The notes under the pieces are model-generated. The model was not told the origin of the DNA, searched no databases, and saw only the letters and a list, made by a program, of their open reading frames with translations. Positions 961 to 45,006 of a stretch of 64,000 nt of DNA are shown here, in pieces. The stretch is taken from NCBI RefSeq assembly GCF_037042905.1, contig NC_087247.1:63059097-63123096 (forward strand), written 5' to 3'. The DNA comes from Lytechinus pictus. Its lineage: Eukaryota. Every line of letters begins with the position of its first letter. Position 1 is the stretch's first letter. Made by a program: the position numbers and the translations under genes.

Positions 961-1017
961 AGTGGCATGACAACCAGTGGCACTCAAATGGGGGGGGGGG
1001 GAGGCACTTGCCCCCCA
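961..1017. repeat. Gn-loop-Cn hairpin of the same class: agtggcatgacaaccagtggcactcaaatG12aggcacttgC6
   Basis: Same architecture (AGTGGC... followed by a G-run, short spacer, C-run). Confidence 0.4.
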
Positions 1018-4441: not shown

Positions 4442-4914
4442 CAACATGAATGCTGATTCGGATCGATATCAAGCACAACCAATATTTTATTCTAACACAG
4501 TAACAGATAAAAAATTAGAACATGCAATTTATGCCTTGTGCAACAGGTCTTTGTAAGATTGAATGATTAAATTTGGAGGAGAGAGAACCCCATAAAACTG
4601 AGAGAAAAACATAATAATAATAAATTCAAAATAAAAAAATAAAACGAAATAAAAGCCCGGTTGTGTTTTATATAGTTCTCTGTATTTTCTTGTCCGTTTT
4701 CTTAATTTTCCAATAGAACTTTTGACTCATTCCATTCTACCTTAATTTCCCGCTGTTGTTTGCTATTTTGTCATCTTTGTTGTTTATTTCCCTTTGTTAC
4801 TAATCACGCTAGCATAGTATTTGGAATGATTTGTTCTTTCTCACATGTTCTTCTTTCCTTCCTTTCCCGCTTTCCTTCCGTTTTCCCTTTGTATGTTTTT
4901 CTTACTTTTTCATA

Positions 4915-5175
4915 GGCGGATCCAGCTTTTGGCGAATGGGGGGGGGGGGGGCGTACTGCCGAGCGGCGCACATAAGCACTTCACCGGCGCCATAAAAGAA
5001 AATTTTGAAAAAGGGGTAAAGTCTGACCCTGTCAAATGCTCTTTTCTTTTCTTTCCTTTATTTTTATTTTTTAAGCGGCGCCTTTTCTTTCTTTTACTTT
5101 TTTTTTTTTTTTTTGAGCGGCGCCAAATATTAAGGGGGGGGTGTGCGCTCCCTCTGCCCCCCCCCTGGATCCGCC
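4915..5175. mobile_element. Short element with 11-bp TIR GGCGGATCCAG/CTGGATCCGCC and subterminal G14 and C9 runs
   Basis: ggcggatccagcttttggcgaatgggggggggggggg...ctctgccccccccctggatccgcc. Related copy at 8914-9126. Confidence 0.5.
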
Positions 5176-6239
5176 ATTGTTTGTTTTTTGAAGACGAATA
5201 ATTGTATGTATACGATGATAACAGTGCGAGAACTGATTAAAAAGCTACAATAATTCGTCTTTAAATGCAGTCTCGACTTTCGACATCGCACTGAACACGC
5301 CATTTCTGAGTTGATCGACACTTCACACGTTTTGAAATAACAAAAGCCCGGACGTTGCGAGTAACAAAACCTAGACTACGGTAGACCCGGCGGTCGCCCG
5401 ACGAGCGCCGGCGCGGTCTGTTTGTACTGTAAAGGTGATTACGGTACGAACCAATTGTTCTTTCGTATTAACAATTGATCATTAGCCTTTGTGTTACGGG
5501 GTCCTGGCCGCCCAAACTACGATGGATTGTGAACTTTAGATAATAATGATAATTTTCCAAAGTTACAAAGCGCTGATCTCCTTTGTTTGAACAGTTCTTG
5601 TGCTTGGCTTTCATTTCGCCATTATTACGTTATCACCAATCTTGACCAACCTTATAACTCAGATTTCGCATCCCGTTTGACGGTTAGTAACTCTTTGATA
5701 AATATAATTAAAAGACAATTATTAAAATCTCTTTGAAGCACGGGCGGGAATGAAAGGGAAGGGGGAGCCTAGGTTTTCATTTCTCTGCCACGGCCCGTTA
5801 ATTGCTTTTAATTTTATATAGATTAAAAATCATAATCACAAGCTCTTTGAAGCACTTTACTTCAGGGGCGCGGTGGAGCGAATTTGAAGGGGGGCACTGG
5901 GAAAAATGGTACCTTCTCGTTAAAAGGGCACTATATCTTTAAAAAAGAAAGACTAATCTATAGTAGTGTGGTGAGCAAAAATTTTTGAATTGGCTGCAGT
6001 ATCGAAGCTTCGAGCGAGCAAAAATGAACATTTTTGTAACGAAAATCAAATTTTGTGTTAGATTTTGACATAAATTATAGGCCTATTCAGAAATAATATC
6101 ATTATCTATCTTTCCTTCTCTTATATTTTCTTTCTTTTTTCTTGGTTGTGCTTTTTTTGGGGGGAGGCAAGAGTCCCCCCATCTGTACGCATCTACCCAC
6201 TCAACTGACTGATGAAACTTAATGCACGTATGATTATTC

Positions 6240-8392: not shown

Positions 8393-8913
8393 TAGAAACG
8401 AAAAGGGGGAAAATGTTGAAAAATGTAAAGGGTGAACAAAGGGGAGAGAGAAGAAGGAAAGGAGGAGAAAATAATCGACATAGAAAAAAGAGAAGATCGA
8501 AAGGGAACAAGAACGGAAAACAAAAGAGGAATTAACGAATTAGAATTAAAGAAGTGAAAGGGGTTGAGGAAGAACAAGAGGGAGATTTAGAAAGAAGAGA
8601 CCGAATGGCCTGAATGAGAAGAGCAAATGAAAAGGGGGAGAGGGGAAGAAAGGAAGAAATAAAACACAAGAAAGACGAAAGAAGAACTGAAGGTAAGAGA
8701 ATAACAGAGAGGGAAAGAGAGAATAGATCTGGACAAAGTCGAAGGGGACAACATGACAATGACTTGTAGGTTAATGTTAATTTCAATAGGTGTATTTTAA
8801 ATGACTAATATTTTCAATCAATATCGTAAGACCCGTATACCATTATCAAAAAATAAAAAATGCAGGCCTACTGCATGGTCCTTTCAGGCCATATTTCATT
8901 GGTCAAAGTCAGG

Positions 8914-9126
8914 GGCGGATCCAGGATTTTCCCAAAAAAGGTTTTCAAGCATAAATTAAGGATATTTCGTACCCGCCAAAAAATTGACAAGCAAAAACAA
9001 GAATAGGTCTTCAATTTCAAAAGGGGGGTACATCCCGGGGTATATCTCGGCTTCAATGGCATTTTGACATTACAAATTTTTAATTTTTCTTCTCAAGGGG
9101 GGGACGTGCCCCCCTGGATCCGCGCC
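8914..9126. mobile_element. Second copy of the GGCGGATCCAG-TIR element; right end has the hairpin GGGGGGG-acgt-GCCCCCC
   Basis: ggcggatccagg...ctcaagggggggacgtgcccccctggatccgcgcc. Confidence 0.5.
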
Positions 9127-10399
9127 TTGTCGAAGTTGATAATTATTCTACTGTCTCTAACTTCCTGTTATTTCTGACAGTTATTTCTTTCTCTATCGTT
9201 CATTCAAACATGATAAAAAATTGAAGGCAAAAATAATTGGAAATAATGAAGCCCACCAAGCTTTCATGATAAACTTTTTTTCTTTTGTTAATGATACTGC
9301 AGATCCATTAACCCACATTCGCGAACATACAATACTTTTATGGATTTTAAACCATTTCTTTTGAAAATAAAGTTTTCTATTCGAAACATCCCGATCACTT
9401 GCAAATAATAAAGAGAATCTTCAACATGTCCATTTTATGTTTCATGAAATAAATCTTCGCCAACAAACCGTGTTATGAATTTTGCGTTTACGCATGACTT
9501 TTTGCGCGATTATAGACAAGCTATACGCTCTAAATCAGGTAGGCCTATTAATCTATCGCTAACGCCCCCGCCAGGTACCAACTACCATTATCACAAAAAT
9601 AACCCTTTAGAAGTTGAATCCCGTTTGTAAACTTTTGTCAAGAAGCCCCCTTTTCAATTTCAGAATACGTATTGAAAGCGATGCTTTTGATCTTTCTTTT
9701 GAAGCTCATTGAACCGATCGAGCGGCCGGTCGGACGCCGCCAGCTCATACCTGCCAACCTTTGATAATAAAAAATCAGTATCAATACTACGAGGGCACCG
9801 AGTGGGTGTCCGGCCCGTTTTAACGGTAGGCCTAGGGGCTCTTTGCATTTTCAGCATGTAAGAGTAGCGCATTTCCCTACACTTTTTAAAGCAAATATAC
9901 CCTCATAATCTACCTTTATGTAATTTAATATCATTTGTCAATTAAAAGAAGGTCTTTAAATATCACTTTTGTGACAAAAAACACCCAGTTTCATGCAGGT
10001 GTGATTTGTTTTCATTTAAATCTATGAATATTTCATGTTCACCAGAGCTCTCAAAAACTTTAATTTTGAATATATTTTTGAGAGCCCTCTATTGGTGGAA
10101 AGTGAGATTGATGCAGATCTTCATCTCCACAGATTCTCTTTTTAATTAGAAAAAATTAATTTCAATAATTCAATTGAGTTATGGGCCAAGGCATAGGCCT
10201 ATTTTTATGATGAATTTAGATCTAAGTTGGGCCTAACTTACTGTATGAAAAACTGACGTGCCAAAAAATCAAACATTTATCCAGCCTATATCAAGAGAAA
10301 ATAAGCCAAACATTGACAATCATATTCATGTTATTTCACCGCAAAGGGGTTACTGACTAAGGACAAAACCTAAATTGGATAAGTGCTTGTTGGTATAAG

Positions 10400-11500: not shown

Positions 11501-13049
11501 AATTCGATCAAGTCGAGCGTGCCAAGTATCAGAAAATTTCGAACTGACCGAAAAAAACACTCGCAGAAAACTCTTTTTTTATCACTTTCCCGTCATCAAA
11601 TTCACTCATTTTTTTCACAGAGTAATCATGAAACATGGAAGAATCAGAAAATGAAAAAAAAAAAAATCTTCAAAATTTCGAATTTTTTATTAGTTCGTCG
11701 AATTTCTAGGTATTTTGATTTGCGACTTCTCTCTCATTTCGGTATGGCCGATCACATATAATGTTCAAGAATCTACTTTTAAAAATATAGAGAAGCTGAA
11801 TTAAGATTGTGAATTGTATTAGCGCCACCAACGACCTTCCTTTTATTTCCGTGAAAGAGACATGCGAAGCAACTTTTCAGGCCGAGGTAAGCGATTTTGC
11901 TCTTTTTTATGTGGTTTTTATATAGAAAAATATTTGTAAAGTTGAAAGTAGAACGCTTTTCACCAGAAAAAGCCCTGGTGAGTAGCGGATTGAGTTTCGG
12001 CCAACATTATTTGCGTTATGAAACGATGTGAACCGACAACTCTAAAATCCATTGCGTAAAACTCTCACGCAATCTGCGTGAGTCTCACACAATTCATCCG
12101 ATTCTCACGCTCTCATGCTGATCATAGGAATTCTCACGCTGAACCCCGAAAATAGAGAAGAAAAAAGTTTATTAGCCTATATCGGATATTCAATAACATC
12201 ATAACCCGGCCAGGCAAAAGTTTCAAAGTTTTTAACCACACAAGCGCAAAGCTACACTATCAATGCAAATTGGTTTCGGTTTGCCGCGCAAAGACAAGAT
12301 ATTGAGTTGCTATTGGCTTACTGTATCCGGCGTGTGAGAGCTGGTGCATCAAAATTTTACTATGAAGCGGGGTTTTTGTGCGAGGCACAACGAGCGATCA
12401 AGTGTCACTGCAATGCCCTGCCAAAATTGTAAAAGCTCCCTACCGTGGAACGGAGGACACCCCCCTTCCACACAATCCCCCCCTCGGGCGCTCCGCGCCC
12501 TCGGTCACTTAGCTCCCTGACCCTCCCTCGCAATGTCTCACTCCAAACTCTTCTCAAAAGTTGGCAGCCCTGCGTTGCGTTGGTTGTGCGAGGTTAGTAT
12601 AGTATATTAGCTAGACCCACTCATGGGTTCAATGCATCTCGCGTGCGAAGGATTCATATGCACATGGTGCACGCGAATCTTTCACACCCTTTTTAATAAA
12701 ATAACTATGCCATTACAGATTACCTACAGTTTCTAATTGTGCTATGACACTTACCGAACCATATGGATCGTTTGTTGACTTCTCTTTGCTGTTTTTTAAA
12801 GAAAAAAAAAGCATTTTCTCGTGATCTTCACGTAGATGCCGCAGGATCATCGTGGATGTAAACTTTTGCCTAAAGAGGGCGCGCGATATTATTCACAAGA
12901 CGTTTGTTTACGGTTCTGTGTGTGTTCTGGAGCTTGTACTGCTAGCTGCATTTTAGACGCTCAGCATTATTTTCCTCTTTCTTTTTTTTTTTTTTTGGCT
13001 GTCAAGCGGTATACTCTATTATTGACGAGCTTTAAGACCTTTATCGCCC

Positions 13050-13400
13050 CCCCCCCTGACGAGCTTGAAGACCTTTTTTTTTTTTTTTTTTTTTTTTGCT
13101 TGTCAATTTATTTTCTGGTACGAAAACGTTTATTTTTGATTGAAGACCTTTTTTTTTTTGGTTTTTTGCTTGTCAATTTTTTTTTTCTGGTACGAAAATG
13201 TTTATTTTTGATTGAAGACCTTCTTTTTTTGTTTTTTTGCTTGTCAATTTTTTTTCTGGTACGAAAACGTTTATTTTTTATTGAAGACCTTTTTTTCTTG
13301 TTTTTTTGCTTGTCAATTTCTTTTCTGTTACGAAAACCTTTATTTTTGATTGAAGACCTTTTTTTTTTTTTTTTGCTTGTCAATTTTTTTGGCGGCCGAT
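13050..13400 (+). repeat. T-rich ~62-bp tandem repeat, about 5 units (...gcttgtcaattttttttctggtacgaaaacgtttatttttgattgaagaccttttttttt...), ending in the family terminus gCCCCCCCCCCtgtggaaaatcctaGGTACGCCACTGG at 13404-13437. Duplicate at 16180-16560; related copy at 19100-19515.
   Basis: Visible periodicity. Produces the F/L-rich + strand and K/R-rich - strand artefact ORFs 12836..13429, 13108..13383, 16166..16507 and 16290..16553. Confidence 0.8.
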
Positions 13401-14432
13401 TTTGCCCCCCCCCCTGTGGAAAATCCTAGGTACGCCACTGGTTTTATGCTTTAACAGAAAACATTTTGTTTTCATTGGAAAATCTCTTTAAGTTCAAGTG
13501 CACCCCAGAAAAAATGTTTGAATAAATAGAGAATTATGAAACAAGACTATCGCTGAAAACTTCATCAAAATCGGATGTAAAATAAGAAAGTTATGACATA
13601 TTAAAGTTTTGCTTATTTATCACAAAACAGTTACATGCACAATTCATTGATATCTAAATGAGAGAGTCAATAATGTCACTCACTATTTCACTTTTATTGT
13701 TCGAATTATACAATATTTCAATTCTCACGACTTTGACCAAATAGGACACTCTTTAAGTATATACATGAGATACAACCTGTTGATTTTTGGTACAATTTCC
13801 TTTTATGCGCCGACGACTTGAATCGAGAATGTTTGAGAGGAAAAATTCGCATTTCGATTGTTGTTTGCGTAATTTCCACCGCAGTATGAAGGATGACTAA
13901 GGACGGACCGAGCGAAGTAAACTGGTTGAGATTTGGAGGTAAGCGATAAAAACACTTTTATAAATAATTTAAAATTCCTTTTTAAAATGAACTTAAATCA
14001 TACGATCAAGATTAACAAAGTGGACAAATATTGAAAGGTTTGGCGCAGTTTAGTCCCTCACATTCGTGTGATGAATGAAAACGTCAAAATGCACTATGAA
14101 ATCACATGCGTTGTGCGAGGTTAGTATACTAACCTCGCATGTTGTGTGAGTGAGCTAGACCAAAAGCTTCAGTCTCTGTATTTTGGTTGTTCCGCTGAAC
14201 TGCATCGGCTCCACTCACCCATACATGGTGAATGGGGATGATAGTAAAATGTCAGAAATTGTTGAATAAATCCCCAGAAACGACGGTTATTCCTGTCTAA
14301 GACTAAGTATTACTATTTATTAGCATACGTACATACAAACCTCACAGTCACAAGTCACATTAACCCAGGGAGCTCCGGCCCGCGCAGCGGGCCGGAGCCC
14401 AGGAGCTTACCATGTATTTTACCATACTCACG

Positions 14433-14818: not shown

Positions 14819-15305
14819 TTGCCCCGGGGACCTCGACACGTCTTAAGACAGTGTCGAGGTCCTGAATGCTACCATTCATTATCACCGGAGTACAAAACTT
14901 CGCGATGTTTGGCATTAGAAAACCGATGATCATAATGAATTAAAAATCTAATGAGTAATATCAATCTTACCTAAACAAACTGTTCCTAAATCAGCTTACC
15001 TTTGAAATAAGAATAATGAATATAATTCCATGAAATCCTTCAAAAGAGCATCAATTTTCGGACTTTTGTTCCAATCGCGAGATCGCCATGTTTGAAGAAC
15101 GTGAAAAAAAGTTTCTGCGCATGCGCATATGAATATTTATAAGTCTAAGATGACATCACTGTCTTTACAACACAGTTTAATGAATATGCATGTAAAGTCA
15201 AAACTTTCGGCAAGTCGCCTCGATTCAATTAAATCGTTATTTATACCATAGGCATATAATTAAATACCATATTTTCATTTTCATTTTATATATATATATA
15301 TATAT

Positions 15306-18300
15306 ATCGGATATTCAATAACATCATAACCCGGCCAGGCAAAAGTTTCAAAGTTTTTAACCACACAAGCGCAAAGCTACACTATCAATGCAAATTGGTT
15401 TCGGTTTGCCGCGCAAAGACAAGATATTGAGTTGCTATTGGCTTACTGTATCCGGCGTGTGAGAGCTGGTGCATCAAAATTTTACTATGAAGCGGGGTTT
15501 TTGTGCGAGGCACAACGAGCGATCAAGTGTCACTGCAATGCCCTGCCAAAATTGTAAAAGCTCCCTACCGTGGAACGGAGGACACCCCCCTTCCACACAA
15601 TCCCCCCCTCGGGCGCTCCGCGCCCTCGGTCACTTAGCTCCCTGACCCTCCCTCGCAATGTCTCACTCCAAACTCTTCTCAAAAGTTGGCAGCCCTGCGT
15701 TGCGTTGGTTGTGCGAGGTTAGTATAGTATATTAGCTAGACCCACTCATGGGTTCAATGCATCTCGCGTGCGAAGGATTCATATGCACATGGTGCACGCG
15801 AATCTTTCACACCCTTTTTAATAAAATAACTATGCCATTACAGATTACCTACAGTTTCTAATTGTGCTATGACACTTACCGAACCATATGGATCGTTTGT
15901 TGACTTCTCTTTGCTGTTTTTTAAAGAAAAAAAAAGCATTTTCTCGTGATCTTCACGTAGATGCCGCAGGATCATCGTGGATGTAAACTTTTGCCTAAAG
16001 AGGGCGCGCGATATTATTCACAAGACGTTTGTTTACGGTTCTGTGTGTGTTCTGGAGCTTGTACTGCTAGCTGCATTTTAGACGCTCAGCATTATTTTCC
16101 TCTTTCTTTTTTTTTTTTTTTGGCTGTCAAGCGGTATACTCTATTATTGACGAGCTTTAAGACCTTTATCGCCCCCCCCCCTGACGAGCTTGAAGACCTT
16201 TTTTTTTTTTTTTTTTTTTTTTGCTTGTCAATTTATTTTCTGGTACGAAAACGTTTATTTTTGATTGAAGACCTTTTTTTTTTGGTTTTTTGCTTGTCAA
16301 TTTTTTTTTTCTGGTACGAAAATGTTTATTTTTGATTGAAGACCTTCTTTTTTTGTTTTTTTGCTTGTCAATTTTTTTTCTGGTACGAAAACGTTTATTT
16401 TTTATTGAAGACCTTTTTTTCTTGTTTTTTTGCTTGTCAATTTCTTTTCTGTTACGAAAACCTTTATTTTTGATTGAAGACCTTTTTTTTTTTTTTTTGC
16501 TTGTCAATTTTTTTGGCGGCCGATTTTGCCCCCCCCCCTGTGGAAAATCCTAGGTACGCCACTGGTTTTATGCTTTAACAGAAAACATTTTGTTTTCATT
16601 GGAAAATCTCTTTAAGTTCAAGTGCACCCCAGAAAAAATGTTTGAATAAATAGAGAATTATGAAACAAGACTATCGCTGAAAACTTCATCAAAATCGGAT
16701 GTAAAATAAGAAAGTTATGACATATTAAAGTTTTGCTTATTTATCACAAAACAGTTACATGCACAATTCATTGATATCTAAATGAGAGAGTCAATAATGT
16801 CACTCACTATTTCACTTTTATTGTTCGAATTATACAATATTTCAATTCTCACGACTTTGACCAAATAGGACACTCTTTAAGTATATACATGAGATACAAC
16901 CTGTTGATTTTTGGTACAATTTCCTTTTATGCGCCGACGACTTGAATCGAGAATGTTTGAGAGGAAAAATTCGCATTTCGATTGTTGTTTGCGTAATTTC
17001 CACCGCAGTATGAAGGATGACTAAGGACGGACCGAGCGAAGTAAACTGGTTGAGATTTGGAGGTAAGCGATAAAAACACTTTTATAAATAATTTAAAATT
17101 CCTTTTTAAAATGAACTTAAATCATACGATCAAGATTAACAAAGTGGACAAATATTGAAAGGTTTGGCGCAGTTTAGTCCCTCACATTCGTGTGATGAAT
17201 GAAAACGTCAAAATGCACTATGAAATCACATGCGTTGTGCGAGGTTAGTATACTAACCTCGCATGTTGTGTGAGTGAGCTAGACCAAAAGCTTCAGTCTC
17301 TGTATTTTGGTTGTTCCGCTGAACTGCATCGGCTCCACTCACCCATACATGGTGAATGGGGATGATAGTAAAATGTCAGAAATTGTTGAATAAATCCCCA
17401 GAAACGACGGTTATTCCTGTCTAAGACTAAGTATTACTATTTATTAGCATACGTACATACAAACCTCACAGTCACAAGTCACATTAACCCAGGGAGCTCC
17501 GGCCCGCGCAGCGGGCCGGAGCCCAGGAGCTTACCATGTATTTTACCATACTCACGGGACTAGGGTGATTTATGGTCTAAATATTTCTTTAAATGAATTG
17601 TGAAAACAGAAATTATGCACTTACCACGATTATATGGATGAAGGTCTAACGAGTGGCAGTTTCCTGACATCTGGGCACAGACTGGAACCTCAAAAAACGA
17701 AAAGTTCTCTCCTTCTACCCCCGTCTCGATCGGCCATTTTTGTTATGAATTGTAACAAAATGGCCGATCGAGACTGGGGTAGAAGGAGAGAACTTGTCGT
17801 TTTTTTGAGGTTCCAGTTTGTGCCCAGATGTCAGGAAACTGCCACTCGTTAGACCTTCATCCATATAATCGTGGTAAGTGCATAATTTCTGTTTTCACAA
17901 TTCATTTGGAGAAATATTTAGACCATAAATCACCCTAGTCCCTTGCCCCGGGGACCTCGACACGTCTTAAGACAGTGTCGAGGTCCTGAATGCTACCATT
18001 CATTATCACCGGAGTACAAAACTTCGCGATGTTTGGCATTAGAAAACCGATGATCATAATGAATTAAAAATCTAATGAGTAATATCAATCTTACCTAAAC
18101 AAACTGTTCCTAAATCAGCTTACCTTTGAAATAAGAATAATGAATATAATTCCATGAAATCCTTCAAAAGAGCATCAATTTTCGGACTTTTGTTCCAATC
18201 GCGAGATCGCCATGTTTGAAGAACGTGAAAAAAAGTTTCTGCGCATGCGCATATGAATATTTATAAGTCTAAGATGACATCACTGTCTTTACAACACAGT

Positions 18301-18412
18301 TTAATGAATATGCATGTAAAGTCAAAACTTTCGGCAAGTCGCCTCGATTCAATTAAATCGTTATTTATACCATAGGCATATAATTAAATACCATATTTTC
18401 ATTTTCATTTTA
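15306..18412 (+). repeat. 3.1-kb tandem duplication, copy 2; junction with copy 1 is a (TA)10-11 microsatellite at 15287-15307
   Basis: Same as above. Copy 1 ends ...ttcattttcatttta then (ta)n then atcggatattcaataac, which begins copy 2. Confidence 0.9.
17557..17942. repeat. Second copy of the ~386-bp palindrome (within duplication copy 2)
   Basis: Identical to 14433-14818. Confidence 0.85.
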
Positions 18413-21116
18413 AAAAAATCTGTATTTATGAAAAAATAATTTATTTCATAGATATTTTTATTTTGTTGCATTCTGTGTTTCTATAATATATTTTTTTTAA
18501 TTTTGTAATTTGTTATATCTCTCTCCTTTTCATCTTGTTTATGCTTTGTTTATGGGGGGGGGGGTAAAGCATGACTGTGTTCTCTTGGTGTGTGTGTGTG
18601 TTTTTTTATATAACTTCCTGAACAAAATAAAATTTATCAACAGTATGATTGTGTTTTATAATTATATTAAGAGATTTCTAGATCATGTAGAAATTTTTAG
18701 TCTGTATTATGATTATTCCCTTTGTGATTACGAAATATTAAAGAAATATTTACAGATTCTAATTTTACATTAAGAAAAATCAATTTACGATTTTCTTAAA
18801 TACGAATTATGATTTTATAAATTTTATACATCTTTTTCACTTGTTATAACAACGAGGAAGGATTGAATATGATTTTAAAACGAAAGGAAATACTTAAAAA
18901 CAATGTTGCCTCCTTTAAAAAGAAATATCAAGATATTGTAAAGAATAATTATAATAAAAAAAAAAAGAATCTGCCGCTTTGATAATCTCTAATTACCATT
19001 TGTTGTTTAATTCACCTCATGGCAGTAGCATAGGTTTTTTTAGTCACCCGCCTCCCCCCCCCCCCCCCCTCTAAAGAAAATTAATACAAAACGACCTCCA
19101 ATTCTATGTTAAAGACCTTTTTTTTTTTTTTGCTTGTCAAATTCAAATTAAAAACATGGAATTCACTGCTGGATCCAGGGGGAGGCCAAAGCCGGCTCGT
19201 GCTCCCCCCTCCCCTTGAGAAGCAAAATGAAAATTTGTGATGTAAAAAATGGTGTTAAAACCGAACTGTGCCCCCTCCCCTTTGAAAGTGAAGATCTTTT
19301 TTTTTTTCTTGTCATTTTTTTTCGGGGCCGAATTATTCTTTTTTTTTTTTTGTTAACAAAAATTTATTTCTTTTTTTTTTTGGCGAGTCAATTTTTTCAG
19401 GGACGAAATTTTCTTAATTTTTGGTTGAAAAACTTTTCTTCTTTTTTTTGCTCGTCAAAGTTTTCATTGGAAAAAATGTGCCCCCCCCCCCTTGAAAATC
19501 ATGGTTCCGCCACTAATTGAACTCATTTATACGAAGCGCTTACACTGTCAAAAATAATTTTAACAACGTTGTTTATTGTGTGAATTGCGCAGTATATAGT
19601 TCAAACATTTTAAACAAGTGTTTAAAGTCCTAAAAATCATGCTTTGATTATCAAATATTTGAATTTAAACTGCGTTGTTTAAGAATTTAAACACTTGTTT
19701 AAACTGTTTAAACAATTGTGTGATTCATGTCGTAAACAGCGTTTTTTTTTCAATCATTTATAACAGTGTACTTGAATGATTAGAAACTTAAATGACATGC
19801 AAAATATCAAATTAATGGCGCAAAATAGGCGAAAGGAGATTGATGACATATGAACTTCCATCTAGTAATATTGTACTTTCTTTTTTTCACATATATATTG
19901 TACGGCACAATTTTTATAACTGCCCCTTTTAAATGCTCAGGATAAGGCCGTCCGCGGCCCTAAATAAATAAGTAAAGAGCTGAAAAGCGAAAGAAGTAGC
20001 CTTTGTGGGTATGTAATTGACAGCATTGTTTTTATAAAGTTTACCGCCCTTACCTAAGGATCGGGAAAGTTGGTATACAATTTAAAGAAAAATATTACTT
20101 TGACATAGAATCTTAATACTAGTTCCGTTCCCAAATATTATTTTTTAAAACTTGATGCCGCCACGAAACACACTAGCATTAAGCCGAGATGGGAAAACGG
20201 GGTAGTATAGAAAGGTAAATAAAGGAGAAAAACAATATTATCATAATTTCCTCGCAAACTTGCGCGGAAGCAAATATTTAGAGAGAGAAAGAAAATGAGA
20301 AAGAAAATCCCGCAAAGCTATCTTTTTCGCCATTGCTTTCCCCTTCGCTCTCACCGTGTATACTGTCCTGGGGGGGGGCGTTAGGATGGGGAAGGCCACC
20401 CCACCACCTCCTTGCGACGCACTTGTTATAGAAAAAATTGAAAAGGTGCATGATAAAGCCCTAACTTTTATTGGGATGTTATGACAAAATATATCACAAA
20501 ATTGGATTTCTGCATCAATTCTTCAGTGGTACAGTAGTAGAAGTATATAGATAAGCTGATTTAGTGTCACCATTATTATTAATTAATTCTTAAGTAAAAA
20601 CAATTAAGATAAAGAACGAGACGTCTTTAGAAAAAAAAACGCCTCTTGGATGCCAAGAAAACAATCAGACAAGCAAGATTCGCGGCGACTTTATGCGTCC
20701 TATATAATGAGCAATTCAATTCTTTGTGATTATAGGCCTATACTTATCCCGCAGAGATTTATATACTCGATGATTGAATCTTACAGAATGCAAAAAAGAT
20801 GAAAGATAACATAGTAATCTATAAACAAACATATGAATTTTAATCATATTTCATGATTCCATAATCTCCGTTCAAAAATATTACAAATTAATATTGATAT
20901 AGGCATCAATAATGAAAATGGTTGTTGGATGATAATGAGATTTGCATATATTTTCATTTCATTTATTTATTTTAAATTCTCATTAAAACGTACAACATAC
21001 AATTCAAATTGAAAGAAGGATGCATGCACAGTATACAAAATAAACAAAATGTAAAACATAACAAGAGAGAAAGAAAAAAATCAAAATATATGGGATTGTA
21101 TGATGTCTTTAAAGGT

Positions 21117-21582: not shown

Positions 21583-21724
21583 ATTCACATCACGGAGTCC
21601 TCTAGATTCTAGGCTAAGTCAGCACAGGCCTTTCAGAGGCAGGGTTCCAGAAAATAGGCATCAATATCTTAAAGAGGTGATTTGCTGATCACTCAATAAT
21701 TTTGATCAACGAATAGATTCACTA

Positions 21725-21780
21725 GCGTACCTAATGGGGGGGGGCAGACTGCCCCCCCCCCCCCCCCTGACGAGTCACAA
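21725..21780. repeat. Minimal unit of the family: GCGTACCtaatG9cagactgC17TGACGAGTCACAA. A second copy at 29369-29420 has G5cagactgC7.
   Basis: Two near-identical ~55-bp copies 7.6 kb apart, each a Gn-7nt-Cn hairpin. Confidence 0.6.
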
Positions 21781-29130: not shown

Positions 29131-29749
29131 TAACAAGGTTAACATTTTTCTTAAAATATCACAACCCATACAAGAAAAAAATAAAATCTAACATTTTCCC
29201 GCAAAATAACAATGAACGTCATTCCAACTTTAAGACGAAGGGGGCATGAAAGCCATGCAGGAGTTGAGGACAGCGAAGAAGTAGAAGAGTGCACTTGCAC
29301 GTCTTACGACAATAGATATTAATTATTTTGGCTATTTTCCAGGGCTGTTACGTACGTTTTCAACACTAGCGTACCTAAGGGGTGAAGGGGGCAGACTGCC
29401 CCCCCTGACGAGTCACAAACAAAAAAAAGGAAGCGAAAAGGTGGAAAGAAAAAAGAAAAGAGGAAAAAGGAAAGAGAGAAAAAAGGGGGAAGGGAAAAAG
29501 AAGAAAGAGTTTAAGAAAAAGGGAAAAACAAAAATTGGACTGCAGACTGTCGGGAAAAATGATAAACTGTCGGGCACTCGAGGCTGTTCCAACTGATTTG
29601 GTTTTTTAGTTCCACCATCTTTGTCGGTAAATGTAAATTAAACTGTACACTTTTATCGGTAAATTGTGATTTTTACGCAATGAGACTTTTATAGCTCTCT
29701 GTACCCATAGAGAGAGGATGGACTGGGCTGACCAGGGACAGGAAAAGAG

Positions 29750-30760
29750 AACAACTTTTAGGTATATTATAACAATAAAAATTTCGCTCCTGCTACGCGC
29801 TGCGCTCGCATCAATTTTTTGGTTGGGTACCTAAGATAAATGTTTAGTTGCAGGTTGAAATATCAAAAATGTTCAGCTCGCACTTCGCGCTCGCGTCAAT
29901 TGATTAGTTGAAAACCAATTTGTTCACGGTTACAAAAAGTGCTTATAATATCCAGTTCTCAAGTTAGGCCGGAATATCAAAAATTTAAGCTCGCGTTTCG
30001 TGCTCACATATAACTATTTAGGTATATCCATCCTGTTCATAGATAAATTAAGTGGTTAGAATGTCCGGTTTTCAGGTCGGAATATAAAACATAAAACATA
30101 TCAAAAATATATAATTAGAAACCAATTTGTTCACGGTTACAAATATTGCTTAGAATATCAAATTCTTAGGTTGGAATATCAAAAAATTGCCGCTCGATCT
30201 CCGCACTCGCATAAAGTTCCATCCTGTCCATAATTAAATGAAGTGCTTAGAATGTAAAGTTTTCAGGTCGAAATATCAAAAGTTTTCAGCTGGCGCTTCG
30301 CGCTCACATGCACAATTAATTGTTTTTAACTACCATCTTGTTCATACTTAAAAAAGGTGCTTAGAACGTTCACTTTTCAGGGGGGAATATCTCAAATTTT
30401 CAGCTCGCCCTTGGCGCTCGCATCAATTAATTATTCAGTTAGAAACCGATTTGTTCATGGTTACTAAAAGTGCTTAGAATATCCAGTTCTTAAGTCGGAA
30501 TATCAAAAGTTTTAGCTGGCGCTTTGTGCCCGCACGACTGTTTAGATACCCATCTTGTAAAATTGCTTAGAATGTCTAGTGTCCAGTTAGGAATATCAAA
30601 ATTTGTAGCTCGTGCTTTGCGCTCGCATAATTTATTAATTTATTAAGGAAGATACTCATCCTATTCATATAGTTAAGTACACAAATGGATTGTTTTTGGT
30701 CTAAATTTTTAGAAAATTTCAGCTCGCGCTTCGCGCTCGCATTTATTATTTTTATATAAT
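29750..30760. repeat. Degenerate ~110-115-bp minisatellite, about 9 units; each unit contains agctcgcgcttcgcgctcgca ... ttgttcacggttac ... gtgcttagaatatc ... aatatcaaaa
   Basis: Repeated anchors spaced about 110-115 bp apart across 29750-30760. Confidence 0.7.
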
Positions 30761-30974
30761 TTTAGTGTAAGTTGTTAGGCACGTGCAAGTGAAAGTGAAG
30801 TGTTTTTGGGGGGTGGGGCTTGTCAATTTTTTTGTAAACAAATTTTCTCCTTGAAAATCCTGGATCTGCCCATGGGTTGGATATAAATGAGTATTGGTCG
30901 TCGGACGTCAGTAATCGGTACTGATATATGTCGGTAAAGGCCTAGCTATACCCCTGTTAACACATTCCTCTAGT

Positions 30975-32186
30975 CAGTGGCGTAACAGGCGGGGGGTAGG
31001 GGGGCAAGTTGCCCCCCCCTGGCGGATTTCACCGGGAAAATAAAATAAAAACGGGAAGAAAAAAAAAGGAGGGAGAAAGAAAGGGAAAGGGGAAGGAAAG
31101 GAAAAAAGGAAAGGGGGAAAGGGAAAGGTAAAGGGAACAGTGAAAAGAAACAAAGAATTTTTTTTTTTTAAAGGAAAAAGAAGGAAAGCGGGAAAATATA
31201 CGAAAGAACATCTGAGAAAGAACAAATCATTCCGAAATACGCCTATGTAATGCAGTAGCACGGTGGGAAATAAATTAAAAGATGTCAAAATGGCAAACAA
31301 TAGCGGGAAATGAATATAATGGAAAAATCTATCACATAATTAGAATTTAATTTCAATGGGCAATTTTTTTCCAGCTCGCTTTGCACACTGGCGACTTTTT
31401 ATATATTTTTCCCACATTGCTATGTTTTGCCCCTCAAAATATTTGGTTCAAAACGCAACTGGGTTAAATAAATGTGTTGTGTAAAAGCTATATGTATATG
31501 CCCGCGATTTCAAAAGAGCGGCAATCTGCGAGGTTTAAATGGCTTTGATATCAAGAAGTTCCGGGGGCTCCGCCCCGGACCCCAACCGCACAGCACTGCG
31601 TATGGAAGGGTTGGGCCATGGCCCTAAAAAGTTCTACAGACAAGAAAAAAAAAGAGGAAAGAAAAGCAAAGGAAAAGTGTAGGATATGATTTAAATTACT
31701 GAACATATAATGTCAAAAAATAGCTCAAAGTTCGATTCTCATGAATAGATGACTTTTTCTCGCTCGCTTCGCTCGCTCGTTACTTATACAAAGCAGCTTT
31801 TTAGCACATGTGCTATACTGTGCCCCTCACATTTTTTTTTGTTCCTCTTCACGCTACTGCCGCAAAAGAATCCTGTTCACAGTGGCGTACAGACCACAAA
31901 AAAAGGAATCTAAAGAGAAAAGAGTAAAATATATTATTATCTGGATATCATGTCAAAATCTATCACAAAATTGGATTTTGGTATTAAAAAGGGCAAAATT
32001 TTTGCTCGCTCGCTTCGCTCGCTCGCAGCTTTTTTTAAAGATAAATTTTCCACGATACACAATATCTGGCCTTCTCAAAATAGTCGCCTCATTACACCAT
32101 TACGCCTGTTCATACCATGATATGACCGGGAATTTTTTGGCTCTTGTCCCCCCCCCCCCCTGGCCACCGACCCCTGTTACGCCGCT
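30975..32186. mobile_element. Element of the G-run/C-run hairpin family: left terminus CAGTGGCGTAACAGGCGGGGGGTAGGGGGGCAAGTTGCCCCCCCCTGG, right terminus CCCCCCCCCCCCCCTGG...CCTGTTACGCCGCTG
   Basis: Termini are reverse complements (CAGTGGCGTAACAGG / CCTGTTACGCC(A/G)CTG). The interior holds a polypurine tract at 31030-31200 and duplicated ttgctcgctcgcttcgctcgctcg blocks. A further right-end-like terminus lies at 33553-33608 (cccccctgacgaaatatgctaGGTACGCCACTGG). Confidence 0.45.
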
Positions 32187-32559
32187 GCCTCTAGTTATTA
32201 CAGTACCCCCTTCCTATCCTGTGTACCCGATCCCTTCGCCCGCCTATCTATATTTTCCAATTTCAATTCCCTCAACCTTCTGACATTCCTGCTAGTGAGT
32301 GAGTGATCTAGTGATGTATCATGTTACTGTCGCATATATTTTCACGTTCATATTTATTTTTTTATGAGTGAATGTATGGAAATAAAACAAATGCAAATCA
32401 ATACATGAACACAACTGAGTTCAATGTCAAATACCTCTTTTATAACGTCTCCAAATGAGCAGAATTGGGAACATAATGTAAAAACCTTCAAAAGAGGAAT
32501 TAAAGAAGTATTTTAAAGGGGAATGAAATCTTTGGAACAAGTTGGCTTTTGTGGAAACA

Positions 32560-33050
32560 GAAAATTCAAAGAATAAGATCAAAGCAAGTTTGAGAAAAAT
32601 CAGACAAATAATGAGAAAGTTATGAGCATTTGAATATTGTGATCACTAATGCTATGGAGATCCTCCTATTGGCAATGCGACCAATATTTGTGATGTCACA
32701 TGTGAACAACTTTCCCTTTGATGGACTATAAAATACCCTGAAAATGTCTATTTTTGCTCTTTGTTAGTGTGATACATACTCTTTATCCAAAATGCATTCT
32801 TTGAAAATCTGTATTACATGCCCTCATATAGAAAGAATACATGATGTACTGATAGATGTGATAAAAGAGGCATTTTAAGTGAAATATATAGAAAAGTAAT
32901 GGGAAAGTTGTTCACATGTGACATCACACATCTTTGTCGCATTGCCAATGGGAGGATCTACATTACAATAATGATCTAAACTTCAAATACTCATAACTTT
33001 CTTATTATTAATTCAAATTTTTCTCAAACTTTCGTTTATTTGTTTCTTTG
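32560..33050. mobile_element. Related foldback element (arms at 32575-32720 and 32870-33030)
   Basis: gagaaaaatcagacaaataatgagaaagttatgagcatttgaa...cctattggcaatgcgaccaatatttgtgatgtcacatgtgaacaactttccc is matched by gggaaagttgttcacatgtgacatcacacatctttgtcgcattgccaatgggagg. Confidence 0.55.
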
Positions 33051-34444
33051 ATTTTTCTGTTTTTGCATAAGCTATATGTTTCAAGGGTTTCATTTTCCTT
33101 TTATAAACATGATTAGAAATTTATCGATCACGATCCAATACATTTCATTTCTGGAATGATATAAAAAAAAGAAATAATTTCGACAATAAAGTGCAATCGC
33201 CCGATAGGAAATATCAGTAGTAGCAAGATCCCAACTGTTTTATTGGGCACCCCCTGGGTAACCTTTCCCATCTTCAGTGCCACTTCCAGACCTACACATC
33301 CAAACGTGTATGGGGGTGGGCTGCAAAATGCAGGGCAACAGGGACTGCGAGGTGCCCAAATATCCTCGTGTATTGGTAATTCTATGACCGAATGTATAAT
33401 TTCTGCAAGTTTCATATCATGTAAAAAGGCTAAATAATTATTGGAAAAAAAAATGTTCGCTCGCTCGAAAATTAAAAACTGTGAAGTTGATATTTGGGCA
33501 ATGATTATCAGCCCCCCTTGAAAAATTATGCCTATACGTCCATGCCTACTACCCCCCCCCTTTGCTCATTCTTGCCCCCCTGACGAAATATGCTAGGTAC
33601 GCCACTGGTTTTCAAGCTTTGCTTTTGCAATTACGACCCTTGCAACCATCCTATTTATTGTGTAACAGAAAATACCACTTAATTTTTTTTTCATTTATGT
33701 ATGATATATTTGATGATTTATGTACAAAAGGTATTGTTCACTATCTTGATGTCGAAATTCAGATATGTATTTTCTTGTCCAGAATTTTGTTATGAAAAAT
33801 GTTGCAAAAACCAATAAATGAAATGAAAAGAAAGCTTGACTAGAAGGGAAAAAAGAAATACAATGAAAGAGGAAGAAAGATAATAAGAAGTAATAAGAGG
33901 AAGGAGAGAGAAATAAAGAGGAAAAGAAAACATGTGGAAATTTTGTTAATTTGAAGCTAACACTGCAGTGCTAAGCGTGAACAAAATTACTTGGTCCAAA
34001 ACACATCACATACACTCACAATACCATATCACATATTCATCCACCACTACAGGATGCATATCACTGAGACACTTTGGGGTGGGGGTGGAGCAAAACACAA
34101 TTTGAGTTTGTCAACAATTAAAAACACAGAACTAACACAATGAAAACATATATTGTATTTACACACCTGAAACAGTGATTCAACATCATGTTTCATTTAT
34201 TCATTTAATTCTTCATCATCTTGAGAGTTTAACATAATTTATCTAATAATCACTTGCATCTTCATGAAACACAAGATAATATTTTAGCTCAGTTTTCACA
34301 CTTATTTCTCCCTTCTGTAATAAATTTAAGGTACCGGTATTCCAAAAAAGTTTGTAAAATGTAAGTACATTCGGTTACATATCTATTAGGGCAGAATATA
34401 TGTTTAGCTTTATTACTCTAATATGAGGGAATCTACCTTACATA

Positions 34445-36639: not shown

Positions 36640-36900
36640 TAATCCACTCACACTTATTGCGAGGTAACCCAGACTCGAGAGCTCCCGCCCGCGCAGCGGG
36701 CGGGAGCCCAGAAGCTTACTGTGTATTTGACCATATTCACCGGACTAGGGTGATTTATGGTCTAAATATTTCTCCAAATGAATTGTGAAAACAGAAAGTA
36801 TACCACGATTATATGGATGAAGGTCTAACGAGTGGTAGACAGGAATAACCGTCGTTTCTGGGGATTTATTCAACAATTTCTGACATTTTACTGTAATCCC
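36640..36900. repeat. Partial (single-arm) copy of the palindrome element
   Basis: gagagctcccgcccgcgcagcgggcgggagc...ccggactagggtgatttatggtctaaatatttctccaaatgaattgtgaaaacagaaagtataccacgattatatggatgaaggtctaacgagtgg, then the reverse complement of 14240-14300. Confidence 0.7.
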
Positions 36901-39066: not shown

Positions 39067-39498
39067 CAGTGGCGTACCGTGTGTCACGGCATGGGGGGAC
39101 CAGCAAAAAAAAATGAGTATAATAATAGAGGCATTTTAAGGGCAGTGCCATTAAACGGATATGTATATTACTGATAAAAAATAATGCGAGCGCCAAGCGC
39201 GAGCTGAAAATCTTTGATATTCAGACCTAAAAAGGGACACAAGCATTTTTTTGTAATTATGATACGTGCCCGTCTCGCTAAACAATGCAAAACTGCTGAA
39301 ATGTTTGTATTTATTGACCCCAAACAGGGACATTTTAAGGACAATAGGCCTATTTTAGGAATCCATATCCATGTACATATCTCAAAAGCTACGTTTCTCT
39401 TCCCTTCTCCCTCTTTTTCTCCTTTTCCCGTTTTTTAAATATTTTTGCCAGCCGAGGGGGGGGGGGGTGCCCCCATGTCCCCCGTAGTCACTCCACTG
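39067..39498. mobile_element. Element of the same family: CAGTGGCGTACCgtgtgtcacggcatGGGGGG ... GGGGGGGGGGGGtGCCCCCatgtCCCCCgtagtcactCCACTG
   Basis: Same terminal motif class; degenerate right end. Confidence 0.35.
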
Positions 39499-44752: not shown

Positions 44753-45006
44753 AGTGGCGTAACGAGCTAACATTTTTGAAGGGCTAGATATTGCGGCATA
44801 TCGGGCCAAATTTATCACAAATTTGCCAGGGAGCAAAGCAACCGAGCAAAAAATATCAAATTTTGTAATAGATTTTGACATAAAATATCATATTTCGCTC
44901 TTCTATCTTTCGTTTTCTTTCTTTTCCTTTATTCTTTTTTATTGGTGGTGATTTTTTGGGGGCAAGTTTCCCAATCCCCCCCCCCCCCCCCCGTCTGCAG
45001 CCACTC
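44753..45006. mobile_element. Element of the same family: AGTGGCGTAACgagc ... tttttGGGGGcaagtttCCCaatC18gtctgcagCCACTC. The interior matches 5980-6190 and 4810-4850.
   Basis: Shared internal string aaattttgt(a/g)t(t)agattttgacataaa(a/t)tat... and gaatgatttgttctttctcacatg. Confidence 0.4.

Follow-up and report, generated by a model that had tools for sequence, protein, structure and literature searches.

G- and C-homopolymer runs in a 64-kb stretch of the Lytechinus pictus genome are very probably parts of the two non-equivalent ends of non-autonomous hAT transposons of the Tip100 group

The stretch of DNA analysed here (the window) comprises 64,000 nucleotides of the Lytechinus pictus genome (RefSeq assembly GCF_037042905.1, contig NC_087247.1, positions 63,059,097 to 63,123,096 of the forward strand). 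It holds 21 runs of G or C of at least 9 nt, where first-order Markov shuffles contain 0.12 on average, which bears out the estimate of at least 20 runs, with fewer than one expected by chance, in a preliminary description made from the letters alone. Hairpins of the form G5+-loop-C5+ are comparably over-represented (11 versus 0.09 expected), as are termini that fit CAGTGGCG[TG]A with at most two mismatches and have a G-run no more than 70 nt away (13 versus 0.82 expected); a 3.1-kb tandem duplication means that two runs and two termini enter these counts twice. The units of this duplication, 12178-15305 and 15303-18429, are 99.8% identical. The terminal motif lies within 80 nt of nine of the 11 hairpins; the other two, at 6159-6180 and 39545-39574, lack a recognised terminus, and so do five of the long runs (4041, 18554, 20370, 38209 and 63869). 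Most of the runs had been thought to pair as G-run, loop and C-run, but a complementary partner is found near only eight of the 21 long runs; the lone runs are the mark of a second type of end.

The feature described at 21725-21780 is present, and occupies 21720..21780 on the plus strand as a solo end of the first type: the terminal inverted repeat (TIR) CACTAGCGTACCTAAT is followed by G9-CAGACTG-C16, with an 11-bp stem, and then by TGACGAGTCACAA. It shares 78% identity with the end at 29364 over 61 nt, the homology ceasing at 21780, and no downstream partner with a matching target-site duplication (TSD) was found within 8 kb. As single-stranded DNA its hairpin (21736-21767) folds at -17.3 kcal/mol (z = -3.4). 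The six other ends that were folded reach -8 to -15 kcal/mol with z-scores between 0 and -1.5, and on these scores the extreme stability once attributed to the hairpins in general is retained for 21736-21767 and rejected for all the rest. Subfamilies differ in the central sequence of the palindrome (CAGACTG, CAAGTTG, CGGCCG, GTTCAAAC), each version being roughly symmetric. Searches of the whole window with Rfam at gathering thresholds and with ARAGORN gave no matches, and therefore offer no explanation in terms of a tRNA, a SINE or a known RNA.

Each element starts with a TIR of about 16 bp, CAG(T/G)GGCG(T/G)A(C/T)C(T/C)AGG, and the runs stand in a constant relation to it. At end A the G-run begins at nt 14-16 and is followed by a short, often symmetric centre and a C-run, giving a near-palindrome that is able to fold; in copies with a coding region this end lies 5' of the transposase gene. 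At end B a lone G-run starts at nt 24-28, behind a spacer of some 10 nt that is frequently ATTTT-rich, and this end lies on the 3' side of the gene. The flanking motifs are thus consistently placed relative to the runs, a point on which the preliminary description had proposed to be judged, and the string CCCCTGG that it noted beside them is a flank in appearance but consists mostly of TIR, namely of its inner part (CCAGG), where this adjoins a run. The two offsets, 14-16 with a C-run partner and 24-28 with none, recur in the window, in metagenomic MITEs, in a metagenomic copy with a decayed transposase (L021), in Tip100 and in an Ipomoea nil copy; an exception is L125, a coding copy whose 3' end conforms (offset 27) and whose 5' hairpin begins at nt 24. 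Most of the pairs resolved in the window join one end A to one end B, and partner ends always share a common TIR sub-variant. The repeats are short, as in hAT elements, with the starts CAGTGGCGTACCTAGG, CAGGGGCGGATCCAGG and TAGTGGCGGAACC and about 11-16 bp conserved between partners. The TIRs of hAT elements reportedly follow a 5'-YARNG rule (Rubin et al., in 2001), with which the CAGTG start in the window agrees; the sub-variant CACTAGCG (21720, 29364) deviates from it at position 3. The size range given for hAT TIRs is 10-25 bp (PMC3942097).

The clearest pairs are two elements on the plus strand, one inside the other. A 4,244-bp non-autonomous element at 29364..33607 runs from an end A, CACTAGCGTACCTAAGGGGTGAAGGGGGCAGACTGCCCCCCCTGACGAG, to an end B at 33607 (reverse complement CAGTGGCGTACCTAGCATATTTCGTCAGGGGGGCA), has the TSD GTTTTCAA matching at 8/8 positions (null P = 2.3e-4), and its ORFs of at least 70 aa encode no transposase domain. 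Nested in it is a 1,213-bp non-autonomous element at 30975..32187, with an end A at 30975 (CAGTGGCGTAACAGGCGGGGGGTAGGGGGGCAAGTTGCCCCCCCC), an end B at 32187 (reverse complement CAGCGGCGTAACAGGGGTCGGTGGCCAG13) and the TSD CCTCTAGT, again 8/8. Of the two opposite ends formerly proposed for 30975, the nearer has thus been confirmed at 32187; the farther one, at 33596, belongs instead with 29364.

Smaller elements make up most of the remainder. The GGCGGATCCAG...CTGGATCCGCC pairs, rightly regarded as related variants, are MITEs on the minus strand at 4911..5179 and 8910..9128. The latter, a 219-bp element of the GGCGGATCCAGG sub-variant, has an end B at 8910 (CAGGGGCGGATCCAGGATTTTCC), an end A at 9128 (reverse complement AAGGCGCGGATCCAGGGGGGCACGTCCCCCCCTTGAGAAG) and a TSD of GTCAAAGT/GTCGAAGT (7/8). 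The former, 269 bp long, has a decayed TSD, TACTTTTT/TTTGTTTT (5/8); its end B, CATAGGCGGATCCAGCTTTTGGCGAATG14CG at 4911, resembles the 3' end of L125 (...GGGCAATG8CGG), and its end A at 5179 reads CAATGGCGGATCCAG9...C8 in reverse complement. A 352-bp MITE on the plus strand at 19164..19515 belongs to the family of 8910-9128 in inverted orientation, with internal similarity to 8934-9103. Its end A at 19164 reads CACTGCTGGATCCAGGGGGAGG...CTCCCCCCTCCCCTTGAGAAG and its end B at 19515, in reverse complement, TAGTGGCGGAACCATGATTTTCAAG11CA; aligned by hand, its TSD is ATGGAATT/ATTGAACT (6/8). Directly upstream, at 19054..19163 on the plus strand, lies a fragment of another copy of the family that lacks a TIR and consists of C16, then ...AAAGACC-T14-GCTTGTCAA, an internal minisatellite unit, as judged against 13047-13140. 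At 13047..13440 (plus strand) a 5'-truncated element combines a remnant of end A (C10 and TGACGAG), 4.5 copies of an internal 69-bp minisatellite (13080-13390) and, at 13440, an intact end B (reverse complement CAGTGGCGTACCTAGGATTTTCCACAG10CA), with no upstream TIR of matching TSD; its second copy, on the same strand at 16172..16564, falls within the 3.1-kb tandem duplication.

Three further assignments are graded lower. A probable 432-bp element at 39067..39498 (minus strand) has complementary A and B ends, with CAGTGGCGTACCGTGTGTCACGGCATGGGGGG as end B at 39067 and CAGTGGAGTGACTACGGGGGACATGGGGGCAC12 as the reverse complement of end A at 39498; its TSD matches at 1/8 positions in register, and by eye at 6/8 (ATTGGCCA versus ATTGGTGA) with the left flank shifted by 2 nt. 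A probable old 422-bp element at 975..1396 (plus strand) begins with CAGTGGCACTCAAATG12AGGCACTTGC6 and ends, in reverse complement, with CAGCGGCGAATCCAGGGCAG9, an end of ambiguous type, its flanks ATGACAAC/ATTCCATC agreeing at 5/8 by hand. Last, a tentative, degenerate 255-bp element at 44752..45006 (minus strand) has TAGTGGCGTAACGAG at 44752 and GAGTGGCTGCAGACG17ATTGGGAAACTTGCCCCC, in reverse complement, at 45006; it is the weakest assignment because its TSD is not convincing. Weak or unrecognisable TSDs characterise all three of these pairs (39067/39498, 975/1396 and 44752/45006), and TSD-guided searches found convincing partner ends for none of 13440, 21720, 975, 39067 and 44752. With about ten elements in 45 kb, and no ORFs in those of 219, 269, 352 and 432 bp, the smaller copies have the properties of MITEs, and non-autonomous derivative is a better label for the 1.2-kb and 4.2-kb copies.

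Eight base pairs is accordingly the TSD length in the window (8/8 twice, 7/8 once and 6/8 once, with a null P of 2.3e-4 for 8/8), as is typical of hAT elements, and copies elsewhere agree. The terminus with a G-run is present at no fewer than 120 metagenome loci, and among them 38 pairs of termini have a TSD of at least 7/8 (26 perfect and 12 at 7/8), which leaves 35 distinct MITE-sized elements (150-800 bp) after removal of duplicates; a search of viral contigs with the terminus pattern gave no match. The symmetrised profile of the 26 TSDs (position 2: T20/C19/A10/G3, mirrored at position 7) is Ac-like at best, nYnnnnRn. Among hAT elements the Ac group prefers nTnnnnAn and the Buster group nnnTAnnn. 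It is with these two preferences that the profile was compared, that of the Tip group not having been characterised (PMC3942097). The metagenomic MITEs of 416-430 bp and their larger relatives L021 and L123, which probably come from insect host DNA, have the TIR seen in the window, and the MITEs likewise have 8-bp TSDs and two end types, A, in which TTCAAA separates G-run and C-run, and B, with CCTAGGAATTTTGTTC and a G-run. They differ in the sequence that follows the hairpin (GAAATTCCGAAGG versus TGACGAG or TTGAGAAG in the window) and in their interior, which is unrelated; BLASTN matches the fetched loci only in the LINE region of the window. The LINE ORF of this region has no identical protein on record; among its homologues are Holothuria sequences at 38-47% identity.

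Autonomous hAT copies encode a transposase that combines an RNase-H-like catalytic core with the C-terminal hAT dimerisation domain. Transposases lie between or beside such ends in other eukaryotic contigs, outside the genome of the window. L125 is a 3,363-bp element with a perfect 8-bp TSD, CAGTCCAG, in which termini of the CAGTGGCGGA type (CAGTGGCGGATCTACC...G8CGGCCGC8 and CAGTGGCGGATACAGG...G8) flank an intact 908-aa hAT transposase (P0217) that scores 60.9 bits to DUF4371 and 31.8 bits to Dimer_Tnp_hAT in Pfam and matches the C-terminus of Tip100 in BLASTP (E = 1e-10). This answers the search for a potentially autonomous copy that the preliminary description had suggested, albeit in another genome. 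In L021 (171-4126) a frameshifted transposase of the Tip type lies between an end B and an end A; it was detected with a local profile of Tip100 homologues (E = 5e-9) and retains Dimer_Tnp_hAT (22.2 bits, cut-off 21.4) and a fragment of DUF4371. In L123 an end A stands upstream of an intact 784-aa transposase. The association of the TIR family with hAT transposases, intact in L125 and decayed in L021, is therefore drawn entirely from outside the window, and their placement in the Tip group rests on the profile, the BLASTP match and a DUF4371/ZMYM1-like architecture; named relatives are annotated as 'zinc finger MYM-type protein 1-like'. More distant relatives (L124 and L126-L128, 26-35% identity) have no clean TIR/TSD pair.

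Within the window, a Pfam scan of ORFs, a regular expression for the hAT SER.FS motif and a local search with the Tip profile found no transposase remnant. The Pfam scan covered stop-to-stop ORFs of at least 70 aa in approximately 1-47,000 and returned only sub-threshold matches to a DEAD helicase and a LINE endonuclease, and the region of about 47-64 kb, which has no termini, was covered by the Tip profile. The SER.FS expression, applied in six frames to the window and 122 loci, recovered no relics; it missed L021 because the motif of this copy is decayed, whereas the profile found it. The assignment of the window copies consequently rests on the similarity of their ends and on the length of the TSD.

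That similarity extends to a plant element. Tip100 of Ipomoea purpurea is an experimentally autonomous hAT element with the TIR CAGGGGCGGAG and an 8-bp TSD (PMC12511174), and this TIR agrees with CAGGGGCGGAT of the window at 10 of 11 positions. Reverse-complemented, the 3' end of Tip100 (CAGGGGCGGAGCCAGGATTAACCATGCGGGGGCC), the end used for the comparison, aligns without gaps over about 32 nt with window ends, its G-run starting at about nt 27. The 8910 end is identical to it at 18 of 20 positions, the 13440 end at 15 of 20 and the 19515 end at 23 of 32 (over 20 nt the three give 18/20, 15/20 and 15/20), while no position in shuffled windows reaches 15/20. In an ungapped alignment of 12 sequences A2, G5-G8, A10 and G31-G32 are invariant, and the position of the G-run is thus conserved from the plant element to the animal ones; of a Tip100-like locus in a GenBank assembly of Ipomoea nil the 3' end alone was recovered. 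The 8-bp TSD is likewise shared with Tip100 and with Tip-group members such as BuT2, hAT-4_BM, RP-hAT1, AeTip100-2 and hAT-12_HM, and the transposases found between such ends elsewhere are of the Tip type (DUF4371 with the hAT dimerisation domain) and homologous to that of Tip100. Unlike Tip100, the window copies are non-coding and reside in an animal rather than a plant, their main TIR variant is CAGTGGCGTA as opposed to CAGGGGCGGA, and their G-runs measure 6-14 nt as opposed to 5 (GGGGG). Members of the Tip group occur widely in animals, one of them being BuT2 with the TIR CAGTGCTGCCAA (PMC3942097).

The ends have precedents among insect MITEs too. BmMITE-13 to -16 of the silkworm, with the TIRs CAAGGGCGGATCCAG, CAGTGGCGGATTA, CAGTGGCGTACCTA and CAGTGGCGGATTT and 8-bp TSDs, were described as 'Pegasus-like' in a paper that names neither a superfamily nor a master element (Han et al., 2010; PMC2997013). 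In exactly this form CAGTGGCGTACCTA, CAAGGGCGGATCCAG and CAGTGGCGGATT- had already been published as TIRs, each with an 8-bp TSD (PMC2997013): BmMITE-15 shares its CAGTGGCGTACCTA with the 13440 and 33607 ends, where it makes up the first 14 nt, and CAAGGGCGGATCCAG of BmMITE-13 closely resembles the 5179, 8910 and 9128 ends. The host is different, and the likeness is one of TIR, TSD (8 bp without a fixed sequence), size (263-431 bp) and high predicted fold stability, internal sequences and G/C runs of the silkworm families not being given in that paper; we found no paper that directly links Bombyx hAT-4_BM to them. The impression of an unrecognised family without a superfamily is therefore superseded by these published TIRs and by the alignment with Tip100.

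The same silkworm families leave room for another superfamily, as the label 'Pegasus-like' names none, and P elements and their MITEs also make 8-bp TSDs (PMC1562414). The MITEs of the Anopheles gambiae P elements further resemble the window copies in being non-coding and in carrying the ends of a master element, but their TIRs measure 27-31 bp compared with about 11-16 bp here, and their transposase is of the P type with a THAP domain (Quesneville et al., 2006; PMC1562414). The transposases that lie between our termini (L021, L125) or downstream of one of them (L123) all have the hAT dimerisation domain and DUF4371, and the ends align with those of an experimentally autonomous hAT. Membership in the P superfamily, for which the associated transposases are of the wrong kind and the TIRs too short, was rejected; it is exceedingly improbable, and in effect already refuted.

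Doubts about the runs themselves are of two kinds. Long homopolymers are error-prone on several sequencing platforms, their length varies among copies, and the nearly identical tandem duplication could be an assembly error, all of which would fit hairpins created by sequencing, polishing or assembly. Yet the same G-run offsets occur in JGI metagenomes, ENA contigs, the GenBank assembly of Ipomoea nil and the published Tip100, and the positions of the runs are fixed relative to a specific TIR rather than random; an artefact could have altered the length of a run, not brought it into existence, and we consider this reading very improbable. Alternatively, the palindromes could be independent elements (protein-binding sites, cruciforms, replication-pause sites or foldback repeats) that happen to lie near a TIR. 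Their centres do change between subfamilies while the rough symmetry is kept, and two hairpins lack a terminus, as noted above. Against this stand the proximity of the others to a terminus, the fixed offset of 14-16 nt at most A-type ends and the fact that the hairpin moves with the element, inside its TSDs, from which it follows that it is a component of the transposon end, where it may have a role within the element. An independent origin thus has almost no likelihood left.

We therefore return to transposon ends, as which the motifs had been suspected from their short TIRs and G:C-rich subterminal hairpins. The pairing of TIRs, the 8-bp TSDs, the nested insertion, the asymmetry of the ends and their linkage elsewhere to decayed and intact Tip-group transposases argue that they very probably belong to MITEs and larger deletion derivatives in the Tip100 ('Tip') group of hAT elements, as the two non-equivalent ends of these non-autonomous transposons. 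The feature is real but represents no new kind of element, the family having already been described in insects and plants. By analogy with what is established for hAT elements, the copies would be mobilised in trans in their host: a hAT transposase, supplied by an autonomous copy at another genomic site, would bind the TIR together with the subterminal region and excise the element by cut-and-paste, and reinsertion at a staggered 8-bp cut, followed by repair, would generate the 8-bp TSD. The long homopolymers may well be slippage-driven expansions of a short ancestral run such as the GGGGG of Tip100. For annotation, about ten elements, which together take up over 8 kb in the first 45 kb, should be masked as non-autonomous transposons of the hAT/Tip100 group, in place of being treated as unexplained hairpins or artefacts, and long G/C homopolymers are then to be expected at every occurrence of this family.

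We further infer that the G-run and the palindrome lie in a putative cis-acting region of transposase recognition. It is possible, though on the whole doubtful, that the 3' G-run (nt 24-28) and the 5' palindrome are required cis elements of Tip-group transposons as opposed to slippage-prone filler; they might then serve the transposase as its subterminal binding site, or as a cruciform that extrudes and lets it distinguish the 5' from the 3' end. The start of the G-run and the presence of a C-run partner suffice to tell the ends of the Tip group apart, and a position held in common with plant Tip100 makes the run a candidate cis-acting signal of a simple and testable kind. Tip100, for which ends of 100 bp suffice for transposition (PMC12511174), is now in use as a transgenesis vector.

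Runs of G or C are greatly over-represented here: 21 of at least 9 nt occur in the window, against 0.12 in Markov shuffles, along with 11 G5+-loop-C5+ hairpins where 0.09 would be expected. A terminal motif is found no more than 80 nt from nine of these hairpins, and a terminus equally near to 13 of the 21 long runs; 13 termini of the form CAGTGGCG[TG]A (at most 2 mismatches, G-run within 70 nt) are present where 0.82 are expected. As these counts are far above those of the shuffles, the enrichment of runs claimed in the preliminary description and their association with termini are real. Its claim that most runs pair as G-run, loop and C-run is overstated: a complementary partner run accompanies just 8 of the 21 long ones. 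The supposed extreme stability of the hairpins holds for 21736-21767 alone (ssDNA -17.3 kcal/mol, z = -3.4), within the site 21725-21780, which reads CACTAGCGTACCTAAT-G9-CAGACTG-C16-TGACGAGTCACAA; six other folded ends, at -8 to -15 kcal/mol, are unremarkable against dinucleotide shuffles.

Termini facing opposite ways pair up in the window, with partners carrying the same TIR sub-variant and the 8 nt outside the ends being duplicated; these 8-bp TSDs have a null probability of 2.3e-4 for an 8/8 match. They are perfect in the elements 29364/33607 (GTTTTCAA, 8/8) and 30975/32187 (CCTCTAGT, 8/8), the latter being nested within the former, which implies at least two insertion events. The match is 7/8 in 8910/9128 (GTCAAAGT/GTCGAAGT), 5/8 in 4911/5179 and 6/8 for the flanks of 19164/19515, an inverted relative of 8910-9128, while the TSDs of the pairs 39067/39498, 975/1396 and 44752/45006 have decayed. 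There are also a solo end (21720) and a truncated element (13047-13440, plus its duplicate copy). No transposase domain was detected in ORFs of at least 70 aa across the element-carrying region of the window; hence, all window copies are non-autonomous. A 69-bp minisatellite occurs inside the elements of one subfamily (13080-13390 and 16205-16514, 19297-19464, 8934-9022), its unit being ...GAAGACC-Tn-GCTTGTCAA-Tn-CTGGTACGAAAACGTTTATTTTTGATT; in every unit GGTACG echoes the TIR core GGTACGCC, possibly as a reiterated transposase-binding motif. A direct tandem duplication of 3,125 bp (12178-15305/15303-18429; 99.8% identity, copies differing at a T11/T10 run) holds one truncated hAT element per copy (ends 13440, 16564) and may stem from misassembly or from a segmental duplication in the recent past.

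Across all data (window, metagenome MITEs, the loci L021 and L125 from outside the window, Tip100 and Ipomoea nil), the first G-run starts at one of two positions, and the motifs are placed consistently relative to the runs. At end A the G-run begins at nt 14-16 and has a C-run partner, the 5' end of L125 being a variant with the hairpin from nt 24. At end B it begins at nt 24-28 without an adjacent C-run: at 24-27 in the window, at 26 in L021 and as the mode in the metagenome MITEs, at 27 in L125 and, in plants, at 27 in Tip100 and 28 in the Ipomoea nil copy. When 12 B ends, ranging from plant elements to window copies, are aligned without gaps, A2, G5-G8, A10 and G31-G32 are invariant. Of the resolved window pairs, most join an A end to a B end, with 975/1396 ambiguous; the B-side ends 8910 and 44752 are without a G-run. 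End A lies 5' of the transposase gene in L021, L123 (another locus outside the window) and L125, and end B lies 3' of it in L021, L125 and Tip100. Accordingly, the hairpins of the preliminary description belong to end A, and most of the lone runs to end B. Three long runs (13047, 16172, 19054) fall in truncated end-A remnants. In the subfamily of 21720, 29364 and 13047, the C-run is followed by CCTGACGAG.

The family had been presented as unrecognized; in fact, both its TIR family and its superfamily are known. The 'Pegasus-like' silkworm MITE families BmMITE-13 (CAAGGGCGGATCCAG), -14 (CAGTGGCGGATTA), -15 (CAGTGGCGTACCTA) and -16 (CAGTGGCGGATTT) are each flanked by TSDs of 8 bp (Han et al., 2010; PMC2997013), and the BmMITE-15 TIR is the exact start of window ends 13440 and 33607. 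Tip100 of Ipomoea purpurea is a hAT transposon, autonomous by experiment, with the TIR CAGGGGCGGAG and 8-bp TSDs, whose 100-bp ends are enough for transposition (PMC12511174); the hAT Tip group is widespread among animals (PMC3942097). A partial transposase sequence and the 3' end of Tip100 come from the supplementary data of PMC12511174; in reverse complement, that end reads CAGGGGCGGAGCCAGGATTAACCATGCGGGGGCC. Over its first 20 nt, window end 8910 agrees with it at 18/20 positions, and ends 13440 and 19515 match it at 15/20 and 23/32, with no position reaching 15/20 in shuffled windows.

A profile of Tip100 homologues, run against six-frame translations of the window and all fetched loci, matched only L021, in three collinear frame-shifted pieces (best E-value 5e-9). 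These are enclosed in a 3,956-bp interval from end B (CAGTGGCGTACCTAGGAACTTTGTTCG12) to end A (CAGTGCAGTACCGAGGGG...TTTGAAACCCCTCGAAATTCC), and Pfam finds a hAT dimerisation domain above the curated threshold plus a DUF4371 fragment. With the stitched L021 protein as query, we recovered two intact relatives. P0181 (784 aa, 82% identical) lies downstream of a hairpin-bearing end A on L123. P0217 (908 aa) scores 60.9 bits for DUF4371 and 31.8 bits for Dimer_Tnp_hAT, and matches the C-terminus of Tip100 at E = 1e-10. On the 480-kb eukaryotic contig L125, it is flanked by CAGTGGCGGATCTACCATAGCGTT-G8-CGGCCG-C8 and CAGTGGCGGATACAGGAGTAGGGCAAT-G8 in a 3,363-bp element with the perfect TSD CAGTCCAG. 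This element corresponds to the full-length, apparently autonomous copy for which the preliminary description suggested a search, and its transposase is of the hAT rather than the P type. The contigs with Tip-group hAT genes carry further DNA-transposon genes close by (L125 10368-11174, L127 1-192), of the Harbinger-type DDE_Tnp_4/Plant_tran and piggyBac-type DDE_Tnp_1_7 classes.

The terminus plus G-run pattern recurs in at least 120 metagenome contigs, and viral contigs gave no match. By their names, we take the contigs to come mostly from termite-gut metagenome projects, in which case the copies would be host insect DNA. In the metagenome loci among the matches listed, the G+C content has a median of 42%, and retrotransposon-like ORFs occur; the TSD reaches 7/8 or better in 38 of their terminus pairs (26 perfect), which comprise, after duplicate removal, 35 distinct MITE-sized elements (150-800 bp, mostly 410-434 bp). 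These repeat the window architecture, with CAGTGGCGTACCGAGG-G-run-TTTG-G-run-TTCAAA-C-run-GAAATTCCGAAGG at one end and CAGTGGCGTACCTAGGAATTTTGTTC-G-run-TTCAACAAATTC at the opposite one, and their runs differ in length among copies (G5-13, C6-14).

An origin of the elements in the P superfamily is excluded by the domains found in their associated transposases, and the reading of the hairpins as independent palindromic elements is likewise excluded, because they adjoin the TIR and lie inside the TSDs. Homopolymer artefacts of sequencing or assembly may affect the exact run lengths, but they do not account for runs at the same offsets across independent assemblies and a cloned, published element. 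The window holds a real and dense set of ordinary non-autonomous hAT transposons of the Tip100 group, in which only these copies and subfamilies may be undescribed.

TIRs, 8-bp TSDs, a nested insertion, end asymmetry and ends associated with Tip-group hAT transposase genes are seen directly. By analogy with known hAT elements, a trans-acting transposase would bind the TIR and subterminal region, and the element would be excised by cut-and-paste and reinserted at an 8-bp staggered cut. We regard the G-run and the 5'-end palindrome as putative parts of the cis-acting terminal region, because they lie, at a conserved position, inside the 100 bp sufficient for Tip100. The run is G5 in Tip100, G6 in Ipomoea nil and up to G17 in the window, and the long homopolymers seem to have expanded by slippage from an ancestral run that was short. 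The conservation of the G-run position across kingdoms, together with the palindromic 5' end, retains a mild interest.

Five of the 21 long runs are not related to the hAT family. G11 at 4041-4051, G11 at 18554-18564, which is flanked by short inverted repeats (ATGCTTT...AAAGCAT), and G9 at 20370-20378 are without a recognizable terminus. C11A11G5 (38209-38235) and C10A16 (63869-63894) differ in kind from the hAT-end runs, since their long C-runs are fused to A-runs with no hAT terminus nearby.

The window is eukaryotic in make-up (G+C 36%, many poly-A/T tracts and satellites), with only two ORFs of at least 160 aa. Three fragments of other genes or mobile elements are present. A LINE-type endonuclease ORF (45142-46063, minus strand) has named relatives only in Holothuria leucospilota (38-47% identity), and its DNA is 70% identical to a marine metagenome scaffold. 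The others are the C-terminal tail of a retrotransposon RT (GDRAFYISGPKLWNSLP; 52850-52900, minus strand) and a RecQ/DEAD-like helicase fragment (37380-37466, plus strand). A 203-bp satellite (24757-29118; 21.4 copies, 91% identity) stops about 250 bp short of element 29364-33607 on its left side and reappears inverted about 1.8 kb past its right end (35423-36205; 3.7 copies), and a 139-bp satellite lies at 59988-60755 (5.6 copies, 88% identity). Four arrays of an approximately 160-bp repeat (3170-3878, 7240-8392, 34567-35241, 49663-50360) each adjoin a copy of one approximately 80-bp sequence (3089-3170, 7057-7138, 34458-34520, 54135-54216), which suggests internal tandem arrays of another repeat or TE family. 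Finally, a foldback-like repeat occurs at 14429-14821, 17553-17945, 40826-41199 and 36677-36838; 14359-14821 aligns with its own reverse complement, and the other window copies are 92-95% identical.
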